DNA of 32,000 nucleotides. Source: Nonlabens ponticola (lineage in GTDB: Bacteria > Bacteroidota > Bacteroidia > Flavobacteriales > Flavobacteriaceae). The notes under the pieces are model-generated. The model did not search any database. It had not been told where the DNA came from and worked only from the letters and a program-made list of their open reading frames with translations. Each line of letters begins with the position of its first letter. The first letter of the stretch is position 1. Of the stretch, positions 956-31,637 are shown piece after piece. The stretch lies in NCBI RefSeq assembly GCF_003966335.1, contig NZ_CP034549.1, positions 1,350,001-1,382,000 on the forward strand. Reading direction: 5' to 3'. A program made the position numbers and the translations under genes.

Positions 956-2236
956 ATGAAAACTGTCATCATTATCTCAGTTGTATTTTTTATCAGCAAC
1001 TTCACTCGAGTATCTGCATCAGTTGATTGTGATTGTAAGCAAGAGCTTAACTTTTATTATAATTCACTTAAAGAGATTGAATCTTATGAGCAAATCAAAG
1101 GATCAAACGAGCAGGAATTTGATGAGCTATATGCTGACTTGATTCATTCAATCAGTGGTAATGTGACTAGAGTTGAATGTTTTAGAAAGATTTCTCAATT
1201 ATCTGCGCTCATAAAAGATGAGCATGCGCTTCCAATCATGAAAGGTTTTCCTATCGAGAAAGGAGATAGCCTCACTAATCCTACAACGCTAGCACAGCTG
1301 CGATCTAGCGATTACTTTCAAGAATTGCCTAGAGTTTCAATGAATCTTGATTCATTGCAGACAGTACTTGAACCAAGACCTATAGATAAAGTTGAAGGAT
1401 TATATCCTTTAAAAGACATGACATTGGGAATCGTCAAAACTTCCAACAATGAATACATCTCTGTCGTCATAACTTCAGAGTCAGATCTATGGGAGCCTGG
1501 TATGATTCAAGGTTATTATACCCAATTGCCATCAGGTAATTTTCAGGTCACATTTGCGCAGTTATCTCACAAACAATGGTACACTGTGCGCAATGAGAAT
1601 TTTGCAAATGGTCGTTTTTTTATCACCAGACTCAAAAAAGAAAATTTGCCTCAATTCTATGACATTATCGATGAGAACGAGGCCAAATTTAGCTACAAGC
1701 GCATCAATAAGGATGTTGACTACCTAAGAATGGGTAGCTTCTCTCGCATGACTAATAATGTAGCACAATCTAAAGAGTTACTTGCTCAAGTAGAAGGTAA
1801 GCTAAACGGCGACCACTTAATTTTTGATTTGCGCAACAATAGCGGTGGTGCAGCTCGAGTTTCAAAGCCTTACCGCAAGCTGATCAAAAAATTTGCTAAA
1901 AACGGTAAAGTCTGGATTCTATTAAACAAATACTCGGCTAGCCAGGCAGAAATCACTGCATTAAGCTTGAAAGATCTTGACAACGTTAAATTGGTGGGAC
2001 ACAATACCTTTGGTGCATCGTCCTATGGCTCCAACTACGGCAAGGTTTCCGTTTCTCCATCGGGCAATTTTTACCACACGGTCACCGATATGAACGTTTC
2101 AGAAAACCTAGAGTATGAAGAAGTTGGTGTGCCGGTAGACATTGAGTTAGATCTACAAACAGACTGGATTGAGCAAGTTCTCAAATTGACTGCGATGCGA
2201 GATGTCGATAATGAGAGCGCTTTCGCGAAAGCGTAA
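956..2236 (+). CDS. secreted S41-family (tail-specific protease-like) peptidase
   Basis: 426-aa ORF with an N-terminal signal-like hydrophobic segment. S41-like motifs are present: IFDLRNNSGG and a downstream YSASQAEITA serine motif. The last five residues (AFAKA) and the stop codon are supplied by a copy of the iterated palindrome. Confidence 0.65.
   Translation: MKTVIIISVVFFISNFTRVSASVDCDCKQELNFYYNSLKEIESYEQIKGSNEQEFDELYADLIHSISGNVTRVECFRKISQLSALIKDEHALPIMKGFPIEKGDSLTNPTTLAQLRSSDYFQELPRVSMNLDSLQTVLEPRPIDKVEGLYPLKDMTLGIVKTSNNEYISVVITSESDLWEPGMIQGYYTQLPSGNFQVTFAQLSHKQWYTVRNENFANGRFFITRLKKENLPQFYDIIDENEAKFSYKRINKDVDYLRMGSFSRMTNNVAQSKELLAQVEGKLNGDHLIFDLRNNSGGAARVSKPYRKLIKKFAKNGKVWILLNKYSASQAEITALSLKDLDNVKLVGHNTFGASSYGSNYGKVSVSPSGNFYHTVTDMNVSENLEYEEVGVPVDIELDLQTDWIEQVLKLTAMRDVDNESAFAKA
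2218..2233. repeat. iterated palindrome copy 1 (exact CGCTTTCGCGAAAGCG)
   Basis: Read directly. It lies in the last codons of the S41-like CDS as AFAKA and is followed by TAA. Confidence 0.95.
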
Positions 2237-2287
2237 TTCCTGACAAACATTCTCACAAATCATTAAATTGCCGTAAGATTCAATCTT

Positions 2288-2887
2288 ATGGCAATTTATA
2301 GTTTCAAGGGACATATTCCAGTAATCCATGAGTCCAGTTTCGTACATCCACAGGCGAGTGTGATTGGCAATGTGATCATCGGCGAGAATTGTTACGTTGG
2401 GCCTAGTGCGGTAATACGTGGTGATTGGGGCGAGATCATTTTGGAAGATGGTGTCAACGTGCAGGAAAATTGTACCGTACATATGTTTCCAGGTAAAAGT
2501 ATCCGCTTTCGTGAAAGCGCACATATTGGCCACGGTGCCGTGATCCATGGAGCTAATTTGGGCAGAAACTGTTTGATAGGAATGAACAGCGTGATTATGG
2601 ATGATGCTATTATCGGCGATGAGTGCATCGTTGGCGCCATGTCATTTGTAAAAGCTGAGGCTATTTTTGAGCCACGCTCTCTCATTGTGGGCAATCCTGC
2701 CAAAAAAATCAAAGAATTAAGCGATGAAATGATCGCCTGGAAAACTGCTGGAACTAGACTCTATCAGCAACTACCAGCCGATTGCCAAGCTACTATGAAT
2801 GAGGTAGAACCGCTAAGAGAAATACCTGAAAATAGACCTGTTCAAGAAGATTTTTATAAAACGTTGCAGGAGATAAAGAAAAAGTAA
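2288..2887 (+). CDS. gamma-carbonic-anhydrase-like / PaaY-CaiE family hexapeptide-repeat protein
   Basis: 199 aa. It aligns by eye end to end with my recollection of E. coli PaaY: SFVHPQASVIGNVIIGENCYVGP, HIGHGAVIHG, IVGNPAKKIKELS and VEPLREI. It carries left-handed beta-helix hexapeptide periodicity. Confidence 0.8.
   Translation: MAIYSFKGHIPVIHESSFVHPQASVIGNVIIGENCYVGPSAVIRGDWGEIILEDGVNVQENCTVHMFPGKSIRFRESAHIGHGAVIHGANLGRNCLIGMNSVIMDDAIIGDECIVGAMSFVKAEAIFEPRSLIVGNPAKKIKELSDEMIAWKTAGTRLYQQLPADCQATMNEVEPLREIPENRPVQEDFYKTLQEIKKK
2504..2519. repeat. iterated palindrome copy 2 (CGCTTTCGTGAAAGCG, one mismatch)
   Basis: Read directly. It lies inside the PaaY-like CDS and reads RFRES. Confidence 0.85.
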
Positions 2888-3011
2888 TTTTCAGCATGGA
2901 GCATAGACTTCAGACTTTCAAGTGTCAGGCCGAGCCTGTCGAAGCCGAATCAAATTCTCAAATGTCTTGTCGAGCGTAGTCGAGACCTCTTTTCTTAAAA
3001 CAAATGACTTT

Positions 3012-3047
3012 GCTTTCGCGCCTGCCTGCCGGTCAGGCAGGAAAGCG
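3012..3047. repeat. iterated palindrome copy 3, split by the nested palindrome CCTGCCTGCCGGTCAGGCAGG
   Basis: GCTTTCGCG + 21-nt insert + AAAGCG. Intergenic, 55 nt upstream of the E2 ATG. Confidence 0.9.
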
Positions 3048-29759: not shown

Positions 29760-29891
29760 AATTTTAGTTTTTTGATTTCATGAACAATTTAGACACTTGG
29801 TTTAAAGCAGTCTGTTAACAAACCATCAATTTTGCAAAATTTGTGATTTTAAAATGTAAGGTTTCTACAAAAGCAATTAGAAACTTATGAA

Positions 29892-31442
29892 TCAATAATT
29901 CTGCGGATTCTCAATCACGTCTTGTGCGCGTTTTTTATGTGCCTTTAATTTATCGCTATCCATTTTCTTGAGATTTGACATGATCATGTTCATACGTTGG
30001 TTGTTCTCAAAATGAGATTTTTTCTCGTCTAGGAAATTCCAATACAGCGAATTGAAAGGACACGCGCCGTCCTCGCCACCTTTTTTGCTCACGCTATACT
30101 CGCAGTTCTTGCAGTAGTTGCTCATTTTATTGATGTAGCTACCGCTAGATACATAGGGCTTGGTAGCGATGATACCGCCGTCTGCAAATTGAGACATGCC
30201 GCGCACGTTGGTAATCTCTACCCATTCTACAGCATCGATATAAACACCTAGATACCACTCGTCTACATAACTAGGTTCCGTCATCGTTAGTAGTGCATAA
30301 TTTCCTGTGATCATTAATCGCTGTATGTGGTGCGCATAGGCATTATCCAGTGAATTATTGATCGACTCGCTCAGGCATTTCATTTTGGTCTCGCCAGTCC
30401 AATAGAAATCTGGCAAGTCGTTCTTGTTATCCAGCTCGTTTTTAGATTGATAATCTGGCATTTCCTTCCAGTAGATACCACGCATGAATTCACGCCAGCC
30501 TAGAATTTGTCTTACAAAACCTTCAACCTGTGAGATCTCTATATCCTTACTATCACGATAAGCCTCGATGACTTTCTCAATCACTTCTTTTGGGCTTAGA
30601 AGCTTGCTGTTCATGGTAAAACTTAAACGTGAGTGGTACAGATATTCTTCCTCAGTATGCATGGCATCTTGATAGTCGCCAAAATGCACCAGCAAATTCT
30701 CACAGAAATAATTGAGTACATCAAGCGCGTCGCTGCGCGTTACTGGCCAGTTGAAATTCTTTTCGTCAATACGGCCAAAAGTCTTCACACCTTCATCTTC
30801 TAGCAACTTTACAATGTCACTCACATCCTTCCGGAACCCTTTCTCATGAGGGATTTCTGTATCATGTTCCCACTTTTGCCTGTTGCTCTTGTCATAGTTC
30901 CAGTCGCCACCTTCAGGTTCTTTGTCGCCTTCTATAAGTATATCGTGCTTCTTGCGCATATCACGGTAGAAATATTCCATCGTCATGCGCTTCTTGCCTT
31001 CAAAAAATTTCTCTACGTCTTTCCTTTTGGTATAAAAATGCTCTGTATCATAGCCTTCCCATTCTATATCGAGCGAGTCGCATATATCCTTGAGCTGTTT
31101 GTCCAGTCGCCACTCATCGGGAGCGAGGTATTCAAACTTTTCTATATCATGTTCTTTGATCAAGTTCTTAATGTTTTTCTCAAGATCTTGCTCATTGTCC
31201 TTATGGTCTAGCTCATAATAAACGGTTTCCCAGCCACGGTCATTCATCCATTCATTGAAACCACGCATGGCAAGAAAAAACGCACAAACCTTTTGAATAT
31301 GGTGCTTGACATAGTCCGTTTCCTGGCGCATCTCTGCCATGTGGTAAATAATGTGCTCTTGATCGCCATTAAACCAGCTGTGTTTGTGGTTGAGTTGATC
31401 ACCCAGTATAAATCGCAGTGTTTTTGGTTTGCTATCGCTCAT
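29892..31442 (-). CDS. cryptochrome/photolyase family protein of the FeS-BCP / (6-4) photolyase (PhrB/CryB, COG3046) type
   Basis: 516 aa. N-terminus KTLRFILGDQL, central GWREFMRGIYW, HIQRLMITGN, and a C-terminal Cys set (YCKNCEY then GACPFNSLYWNFL) consistent with an Fe-S cluster. Confidence 0.8.
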   Translation of the reverse strand: MSDSKPKTLRFILGDQLNHKHSWFNGDQEHIIYHMAEMRQETDYVKHHIQKVCAFFLAMRGFNEWMNDRGWETVYYELDHKDNEQDLEKNIKNLIKEHDIEKFEYLAPDEWRLDKQLKDICDSLDIEWEGYDTEHFYTKRKDVEKFFEGKKRMTMEYFYRDMRKKHDILIEGDKEPEGGDWNYDKSNRQKWEHDTEIPHEKGFRKDVSDIVKLLEDEGVKTFGRIDEKNFNWPVTRSDALDVLNYFCENLLVHFGDYQDAMHTEEEYLYHSRLSFTMNSKLLSPKEVIEKVIEAYRDSKDIEISQVEGFVRQILGWREFMRGIYWKEMPDYQSKNELDNKNDLPDFYWTGETKMKCLSESINNSLDNAYAHHIQRLMITGNYALLTMTEPSYVDEWYLGVYIDAVEWVEITNVRGMSQFADGGIIATKPYVSSGSYINKMSNYCKNCEYSVSKKGGEDGACPFNSLYWNFLDEKKSHFENNQRMNMIMSNLKKMDSDKLKAHKKRAQDVIENPQNY

Positions 31443-31602
31443 AATTTTGGAAAGTAGAGTGTTTTTGGCTTTTTAAAGTCAGTAAATTACTACGTGACTG
31501 TTTTGATTTGCGTTAAGGCTTTCACAGAATTTGTTGAACCACGTGCAGTAAGAAATATGACTATTCCTGCATATTTTATGAGTAAAGTAGTTTTCATGAT
31601 TA

Positions 31603-31637
31603 CGCTTTCCTGCCTGCCGGCAGGCAGGCGCGAAAGC
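31603..31637. repeat. iterated palindrome copy 13, split by the nested perfect palindrome CCTGCCTGCCGGCAGGCAGG
   Basis: CGCTTT + 20-nt insert + CGCGAAAGC. Intergenic, 8 nt downstream of the cry-DASH stop. It is the reverse complement of copy 3 except for one extra T in copy 3. Confidence 0.9.

Follow-up and report, generated by a model that had tools for sequence, protein, structure and literature searches.

A lineage-specific, hyper-iterated palindrome with strand-asymmetric flanks in Nonlabens and Dokdonia chromosomes

Very few lineages are known to carry hyper-iterated genomic words, the examples being the uptake signal sequences (USS) of Pasteurellaceae, the DNA uptake sequences (DUS) of Neisseriaceae and the palindrome HIP1 (GCGATCGC) of cyanobacteria, whose role is disputed after 30 years. 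HIP1 is conserved between genomes, implying selection (PMC5861425), while its function is debated and a recent preprint links it to transformation (bioRxiv 2024.09.10.611283). Here we analyze a palindrome (hereafter the word; 14-mer GCTTTCGCGAAAGC, 16-mer CGCTTTCGCGAAAGCG) that occurs 13 times in a 32,000-nt stretch of the Nonlabens ponticola genome (contig NZ_CP034549.1, positions 1,350,001 to 1,382,000; hereafter the window, to which positions without a locus name refer). Comparison with other genomes and metagenomes shows that the word is a lineage-specific, hyper-iterated palindrome of Nonlabens and Dokdonia chromosomes.

We compared copy counts in the window with those in dinucleotide-preserving shuffles (n = 100). 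The exact 14-mer occurs ten times (starts 2219, 5808, 8124, 11607, 15883, 17024, 18519, 22205, 26035 and 28473), against a shuffle expectation of 0.17 for copies with up to two mismatches, and none of the 100 shuffles reached 11. Six copies are exact 16-mers (starts 2218, 5807, 15882, 18518, 26034 and 28472), for which the shuffle expectation was 0. By our own arithmetic, a composition model (G+C 0.407) predicts about 6 × 10^-5 exact 14-mers per 32 kb, equivalent to an excess of roughly 10^5-fold. The recount and the shuffles thus bear out the initial annotation, made from the letters of the window, which had reported 13 copies (ten exact, six of these as the 16-mer, one with a single mismatch and two interrupted); its positions also hold, 11607 being the start of a 14-mer and the other listed starts those of 16-mers. 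Neither half-site (GCTTTCGC or GCGAAAGC) has a solitary occurrence within the window, and the 8-mer half-site is not enriched by itself.

The initial annotation had left open that the word might be confined to this window, which it is not. Across nine isolate-genome loci of Nonlabens and Dokdonia (206 kb, 56 exact copies), exact copies occur at a density of 0.18–0.37 per kb. Besides the window, these loci comprise 21.7 kb each from Nonlabens sp. YIK11 (L121, 6 exact copies), N. dokdonensis (L122, 7), an uncultured relative (L123, 4), N. spongiae (L124, 8), N. ulvanivorans (L125, 5), N. antarcticus (L126, 6) and another Nonlabens-type metagenome-assembled genome (MAG; L251, 4), together with 22 kb of Dokdonia sp. 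Dokd-P16 from a region unrelated to the window (L248, 6). These loci range from 35% to 42% G+C. Extrapolating from 0.32 copies per kb, we infer about 900 copies in the N. ponticola genome (2,872,100 bp), or approximately one per 3 kb. In metagenomes, at least 120 stretches carry the word; 103 of those listed have 30–45% G+C and hold 170 copies in 670 kb, many of them being multi-copy, and 15 listed stretches above 50% G+C have one copy each, matching the chance prediction. Cluster look-up assigned the multi-copy metagenome contigs to Nonlabens and Dokdonia. Within the Dokdonia locus, the first 9 kb (L248, 1–8962), which belong to a giant adhesin-like gene (5,559 aa in full), lack the word and the next 13 kb contain six copies, a pattern that is not significant alone.

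Counted in related genera, as the initial annotation had proposed, the word proved restricted to Nonlabens and Dokdonia and is not a general feature of Flavobacteriia. No exact or one-mismatch copy was found in 80 lysyl-tRNA synthetase (LysRS) loci (1.46 Mb) of other Flavobacteriales, which include Aequorivita, Psychroserpens, Aquimarina, Tenacibaculum, Maribacter, Leeuwenhoekiella, Chryseobacterium and Riemerella. In Gangjinia marincola, which has the nearest named RNase HII relative outside Nonlabens, the syntenic locus (13.8 kb) likewise contains no exact copy. It does contain a single one-mismatch 16-mer, CGCTTTCGCGGAAGCG (L253, 12819–12834), against a chance expectation of about 10^-3 and without the flank skew described below; this near-copy may be a remnant, an early stage or DNA that was imported.

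Copies are spaced more evenly than expected from random placement. The 57 gaps in the nine isolate loci have a mean of 2.9 kb, a median of 2.6 kb and a minimum of 286 bp, with a coefficient of variation of 0.53 compared with 0.91 for random placement (0 of 2,000 simulations were as even), and only one gap is shorter than 500 bp where 8.9 were expected. Such even spacing speaks for a pressure towards one copy per stretch of DNA and counts against a neutral by-product or scattered insertions. The same values rule out a CRISPR array, as the initial annotation had also concluded, since the spacing is on the kilobase scale (median, 2.6 kb) and the smallest gap of 286 bp compares with spacers of 25–70 nt.

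Gains and losses of the word occur by substitution. In an 813-aa protein, the word (read as AFAKA) is found only in N. ulvanivorans and the other species have GCTTTTACTACAG (AFTTx) at the same site, a difference of five clustered substitutions between conserved flanks. The AFAKA of LysRS, which is present in every named Nonlabens, aligns gap-free to RELAKE or KALAKE in solved structures, and outgroups have xAAKGM or DFAKSI; similarly, RNase HII reads LSRKRR in Nonlabens versus LSEKKR or LTERKR in relatives. Gains often alter two to four amino acids in conserved proteins, but no indel accompanies any gain or loss (813-aa protein, topoisomerase IB, LysRS, RNase HII and several metagenome pairs), and the word is therefore not a mobile element. 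The initial annotation had already set aside insertion sequences and miniature inverted-repeat transposable elements (MITEs), a judgment that every presence/absence comparison supports, and the gap-free alignments also reject a Rickettsia palindromic element. More generally, spread as a miniature element of the MITE, Rickettsia-palindromic-element or repetitive extragenic palindrome (REP)/RAYT type would account for the many identical and few degenerate copies, and three copies do contain a second palindrome that is truly inserted (see below). However, this explanation is largely refuted by the lack of added length at every gain and loss, by copies that lie in conserved enzymes in frame with their orthologues and by the absence of clusters or doublets, and we consider it extremely improbable. 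No transposase-like gene turned up in the sampled loci, although no exhaustive search was made.

Once present, the word persists at orthologous sites, even between species whose silent positions are saturated. Sites in the genes for the pyridoxal phosphate (PLP)-dependent enzyme, RNase HII, topoisomerase IB, LysRS and the TonB receptor are common to several species. At the LysRS site, the word is exact in five Nonlabens loci, has one mismatch in two and four mismatches in one. Across four species, just 99 of 414 conserved degenerate codons of LysRS are identical, indicating saturation of silent sites, and in these same species the word is identical in three and absent (four mismatches) in the fourth. 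Among aligned protein pairs with less than 60% identity, exact sites number 31, compared with 8 one-mismatch sites and 20 with at least five mismatches; an orthologous site is thus either perfect or absent. Mismatch classes follow the same pattern, with 46 exact, 5 one-mismatch, 1 two-mismatch, 7 three-mismatch and 45 four-mismatch sites in 162 kb of Nonlabens DNA, compared with Markov expectations of 0.25, 3.65 and 32.9 for two, three and four mismatches, respectively. The metagenome set contains 171 exact copies, with 18, 21 and 32 sites at one, two and three mismatches.

This exactness does not reflect the encoded peptide. Mapping copies to coding frame, another step proposed in the initial annotation, revealed that all three frames are in use with a bias to AFAKA (54%, versus 28% xFRES and 18% LSRK). 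Approximately 60% of copies lie within long open reading frames (ORFs) and approximately 38% outside them, the latter being several-fold (about fourfold) above the non-coding share, for which we used our own estimate. Peptide-level selection for AFAKA is ruled out by the use of three frames together with the many intergenic copies. Nor is the ability to pair sufficient: only 1 of 24 two-mismatch variants carries a compensatory, palindrome-keeping change, so structural covariation is not seen and it is the exact sequence that matters. Together, these results show that a strong sequence-specific pressure keeps the copies exact and that it acts on the DNA, rather than on an encoded peptide or on hairpins in general. 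Even in core enzymes, LysRS and RNase HII among them, this pressure can prevail over conserved residues.

The unit exceeds 16 bp and includes asymmetric flanks of approximately 20 nt. In the 5' flank, the frequency of C falls to 0.03–0.12 (0.10 for the 5' side; background, 0.19), with T at approximately 0.39 and G at approximately 0.25, and the 3' flank is its mirror image (G, 0.09; A, 0.40; C, 0.25; T, 0.25). T peaks at positions -3, -4, -7, -10, -12 and -13, intergenic copies included, and the value of 0.58–0.67 at -3 and -4 confirms an earlier impression that the flanks tend towards TTAC...GTAA. Intergenic copies show the skew, as do coding copies of either strand, copies in each of the three frames and copies on phage contigs. 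At the LysRS site, the skew is found in Nonlabens and not in 57 outgroup genes, and has been achieved partly through amino-acid changes (T to S; MG to EN or QQ). In one case, a fresh gain in N. ulvanivorans, the left skew is missing.

On each strand, the 3' half of the word is GCGAAAGC, which is known to form an unusually stable mini-hairpin: d(GCGAAAGC) melts at 76.5 °C and GCGAAAGCT above 82 °C, and the structure is resistant to nucleases, especially exonucleases, is not bound by SSB and is found at the origins of phages G4, ST-1 and alpha3 and at ssiA (PMC13037366). This stability is not reflected in standard folding parameters. Folding of single-stranded DNA predicts that, within its native flanks, the core hairpin pairs with a probability of 0.68, up from 0.51 (p = 8 × 10^-15), and that these flanks have less overall structure than random genomic ones. 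A longer hairpin formed by the flanks was rejected; swapping right flanks among copies left the folding energy unchanged and gapless complementarity was as predicted from composition.

These properties raise the possibility that the word is a single-strand initiation signal, in which the mini-hairpin would escape SSB and guide primase as at the G4 origin, the palindrome serving either strand. The same 8-mer that marks those origins is the 3' half of the word, the flanks are unstructured and the spacing of approximately 2.9 kb is near the size of an Okazaki fragment. Nevertheless, bacteria prime their lagging strands without such signals, sister lineages manage without the word and the half-site alone is not enriched. 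Other stable mini-hairpin variants (GCGAAGGC and GCGGAAGC) are also rare, which means that the specific sequence is needed and not a hairpin alone, and we regard a priming role as distinctly unlikely.

A second structural alternative operates on RNA, with the word acting as a REP-like hairpin that blocks 3'–5' exonucleases or directs processing. It is favored by the roughly fourfold enrichment outside long ORFs, by copies at stop codons (31603 lies just downstream of one, and 2218 forms the last codons before a TAA) and by the C(GAAA)G hairpin of GNRA type that the word would give as RNA. Set against this, about 60% of copies are within genes, exact sequence and not structure is held at every position without covariation, and the flanks are the opposite of those of a terminator, with T enriched 5' of the word and A and C enriched 3' of it. 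An intrinsic terminator was rejected on the same grounds, there being no T run on the 3' side (T, 0.25). A search of Rfam 15 at the gathering score gave no match in the window, and overall the RNA explanation appears quite improbable.

We also considered whether the word could be a functionless by-product of biased repair, of the methylation-linked very-short-patch type, acting on TCGCGA or CGCG. Both of these sequences are in the core, which had led to the initial suggestion of a restriction or methylation link, the skew of approximately 20 nt corresponds to the size of a short repair patch, and HIP1 abundance follows cognate methyltransferases (PMC4390886). Outside the word, however, TCGCGA and CGCG are neither enriched nor avoided (observed/expected, 0.9–1.1), so that the lead is unsupported although the core does contain them, and a target of 4–6 bp cannot account for a word of 14–16 bp. 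Even spacing, conservation at orthologous sites and amino-acid-changing gains in conserved enzymes point instead to selection, making a repair by-product very improbable. A mononucleotide model had hinted at avoidance of TTCGAA and CGAAAG, but this vanished under a fourth-order Markov model and was dropped; the Markov scan of 6-mers identified no avoided word related to the motif.

Our preferred explanation, to which we assign a probability of roughly 0.4, is that the word may label DNA as the cell's own, with a sequence-specific protein recognizing it while DNA is taken up, handled as single strands or recombined. Pointing in this direction are the even spacing, with one copy every few kb, and a contrast between the chromosome and a lytic phage: Nonlabens phage P12024S (35.7 kb) contains no copy even at two mismatches, where approximately ten would be expected at host density. 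Further support comes from flanks that favor the single-stranded state, combined with an exonuclease-proof hairpin on either strand, and from a 5' flank rich in G and T, on the side that is kept for RecA at Chi-type sites. RecA prefers G/T-rich DNA, and the 5' side of Chi is the strand retained for RecA. Within the Flavobacteriales, Riemerella is naturally competent and favors its own DNA (PMC7965970).

Under this proposal, new copies would originate by base substitution where the sequence already resembles the word and would then be fixed through biased transmission or through selection that favors one copy every few kb. The reader would be a sequence-specific and probably dimeric protein, and the word would act, in the manner of USS, DUS or Chi, when DNA is taken up, made single-stranded and recombined. 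At that stage the single-stranded 3' half could fold on each strand to a very stable, exonuclease-resistant mini-hairpin, with the C-free 5' flank and the G-free 3' flank leaving neighboring DNA unstructured. In a more specific form, which we advance tentatively and think unlikely as stated, the word would be a new kind of punctuation of self DNA that is read single-stranded, as an exonuclease-proof mini-hairpin formed on either strand when exposed, with structure-free flanks of approximately 20 nt (G/T-rich on the 5' side), a counterpart of Chi and USS, based on structure as well as sequence, that protects conspecific DNA and channels it to RecA recombination through a dedicated reader common to Nonlabens and Dokdonia and absent in their neighbors. 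A Chi-type word in the strict sense was rejected, as a perfect palindrome has no orientation.

Several observations weigh against a self-DNA mark. The proposed function is drawn from analogy, and the fit to known systems is not close, as known uptake words are 9–12 nt and asymmetric, known Chi sequences are 5–8 nt and orientation-biased, and a perfect palindrome of 14–16 bp resembles neither. Near-copies are about ten times rarer than perfect copies, a gap that is reportedly steeper than in Haemophilus, and the flank skew may be a footprint of mutation and not a selected feature. The taxonomic distribution is also awkward: Dokdonia is missing from the best 120 LysRS and the best 120 RNase HII relatives of Nonlabens, so the two word-bearing genera may not be sisters, and Dokdonia shares the word while the syntenic locus of Gangjinia has only its one near-copy. 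Finally, several phage contigs from IMG/VR have three to four copies each, flank skew included, and the word is therefore not strictly chromosomal.

These word-bearing phage contigs encode portal, major head (capsid), tape-measure and baseplate proteins, and among isolated phages they are closest to Cellulophaga phage phi39:1 (portal, 35% identity). On two phage contigs (L025, 10836–10858; L029, 5090–5112), a copy adjoins a 23-nt, (GGT)n-like run consisting of G and T only. At this site the near-identical phages (99%) have one C/T difference inside the word, from which it follows that copies turn over by point mutation in phages.

In a possible though unlikely alternative, the word would be a duplex binding site for an abundant dimeric chromosome-organizing protein (like Noc, ParB, SlmA or the proposed nucleoid role of HIP1) and have no part in uptake or recombination. 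A perfect palindrome of 14–16 bp without compensatory variants is typical of a homodimer operator, and even spacing and conservation at orthologous sites are also in its favor, while the lytic phage that lacks the word and the other phages that carry it are neutral in this respect. Binding sites of this kind, however, number tens per genome and not about 900, and a duplex binder leaves unexplained both the 20-nt depletion of C or G in the flanks and their favoring of the hairpin. For HIP1, Xu et al. argue that the word is selected and tied to nucleoid structure (PMC5861425). A resemblance to parS was rejected by eye because the half-sites are in a different register.

The 13 copies in the window lie in genes of unrelated function and in spacers. 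Pfam identified the genes for an S41 peptidase, a hexapeptide (PaaY-like) transferase, an E1 dehydrogenase, a PLP enzyme, topoisomerase IB, RNase HII and a TonB receptor, and the identity of LysRS is backed by PDB matches; the initial gene assignments therefore stand, apart from the small protein at 26034, for which Pfam gave no match and whose ORF is possibly not a gene. Exact 16-mers encoding AFAKA are found at 2218–2233, as the final five codons of the S41 peptidase gene with the TAA stop directly 3', at 5807–5822 in the E1 dehydrogenase gene, at 15882–15897 in LysRS, at 18518–18533 in topoisomerase IB (exact in four genomes, with four mostly silent differences in N. ulvanivorans) and at 28472–28487 in the TonB-dependent receptor, where the copy is also exact in the 59%-identical orthologue in L251. 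The sixth exact 16-mer (26034–26049) is in the 108-aa ORF, upstream of the TonB receptor gene, and may be intergenic. Two exact 14-mers are coding, one at 11606–11621 (14-mer 11607–11620) in the PLP-dependent enzyme gene, read as SFRES and exact in all six Nonlabens genomes having the gene, and one at 22204–22219 in RNase HII, read as LSRKRR. Two others are intergenic, at 8123–8138 (14-mer 8124–8137), with the DUF4136 gene starting 24 nt downstream, and at 17023–17038, approximately 95 nt upstream of LysRS. The one-mismatch copy CGCTTTCGTGAAAGCG (2504–2519; 14-mer start 2505) is read as RFRES in the hexapeptide transferase gene, and its orthologous site in N. spongiae is exact.

The remaining two copies are intergenic and split by a second palindrome, CCTGCCTGCCGG(T)CAGGCAGG, of 20–21 nt. 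In the copy at 3012–3047 (GCTTTCGCG, then CCTGCCTGCCGGTCAGGCAGG, then AAAGCG), the 21-nt insert CCTGCCTGCCGGTCAGGCAGG (3021–3041) interrupts the word at CGCG^AAAGCG; in the copy at 31603–31637 (CGCTTT, then CCTGCCTGCCGGCAGGCAGG, then CGCGAAAGC), a perfect 20-nt insert (31609–31628) interrupts it at CGCTTT^CGCG, the mirror of the first site. A third case occurs in YIK11 (L121, 9885–9905), in the copy orthologous to the plain one at 17023, which identifies the second palindrome as a true insertion. In all three copies the insertion is at CGCG^AAAGC or its mirror, corresponding to the stem–loop boundary of the predicted hairpin. The second palindrome also occurs by itself in an unrelated Flavobacteriaceae MAG (L050, 8089–8108).

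The window also contains two single-copy palindromes unrelated to the word, a perfect 20-bp one (CATCGATTTTAAAATCGATG, 9420–9439) within a 648-aa ORF without a Pfam match and a perfect 16-bp one (ACTAACAATTGTTAGT, 3069–3084) located 18 nt upstream of the E2 acyltransferase start, as well as two occurrences of the 12-bp palindrome ACATGATCATGT (17555–17566 and 29978–29989). Upstream of LysRS, N. dokdonensis has TTTGCAG-like repeats (TTTGCAGTCGCAGTTTGCAGTTTGCAAAGC; L122, approximately 9790–9830) where N. ponticola has the word. In N. antarcticus, four small 23S_rRNA_IVP (PF05635) genes are interspersed in the phenylacetate (paa) operon and a GIY-YIG gene is nearby (L126, 15615–15992, 18212–18565, 20237–20593, 21634–21692 and 49–366).

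The word has apparently not been described before. Full-text literature searches, whose coverage excluded most subscription journals, returned no description of it or of any hyper-iterated word in Flavobacteriia, and together with Rfam they show no catalogued family, consistent with the novelty claimed in the initial annotation; the strand-asymmetric flanks of 20 nt are a new feature of the word. Nonlabens and Dokdonia are culturable and some of their phages are sequenced, which opens to direct test how such words are written, how their exactness is maintained and what purpose they have. In practice, the word is also a taxon marker for the binning of metagenome contigs and a candidate element for better genetic tools in marine Flavobacteriaceae.

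The analogy to HIP1, USS and DUS that was drawn at the outset holds on every computable property, including over-representation, occurrence in genes and spacers, frame bias, conservation at orthologous sites and even spacing. Like USS and DUS, the word is lineage-specific, occurs about once per 1–3 kb in genes and preferentially in spacers, arises by substitution in frames biased to tolerated peptides, shows conservation at orthologous sites and a spacing more even than random, and is absent from one lytic phage, other phage contigs carrying it. Unlike USS and DUS, the word is a perfect palindrome of 14–16 bp and not an asymmetric sequence of 9–12 nt, its imperfect copies are far rarer and its flanks are strand-asymmetric over 20 nt; to our knowledge, no competence, uptake bias or receptor has been reported for Nonlabens or Dokdonia. 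A further source for the comparison with USS and DUS is PMC7965970.

HIP1 is likewise a hyper-abundant palindrome within and between ORFs with restriction-type words in its core, but it is an 8-mer that is 15–300-fold over-represented and whose one-off variants are common (PMC4390886), whereas the present word is a different sequence in a different phylum, a 14–16-mer about 10^5-fold over a composition model by our arithmetic, with rare variants and with inner words that are not enriched by themselves. The mini-hairpin d(GCGAAAGC) of G4 and ssiA is identical to the 8-mer that forms the 3' half of the word on each strand, although it is known from single sites in phage and plasmid origins and not, as here, from about 900 chromosomal copies that require the full palindrome. 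REP sequences and REPINs also comprise hundreds of copies of a short palindrome that forms hairpins as a single strand; REPs, however, are imperfect, extragenic, often paired in doublets and spread by RAYT, and the word is perfect, mostly intragenic, never paired and gained without insertion. Finally, Chi (the signal of RecBCD and AddAB) is a mark of own DNA that occurs about once per few kb, as the word does with its G/T-rich 5' flank, but Chi sequences are 5–8 nt, asymmetric, co-oriented with replication and only few-fold over-represented, in contrast to a long palindrome. Relative to USS, DUS and HIP1, the word of Nonlabens and Dokdonia is a sharper case in another phylum, being almost all-or-none, evenly spaced and accompanied by a measurable flank signature.

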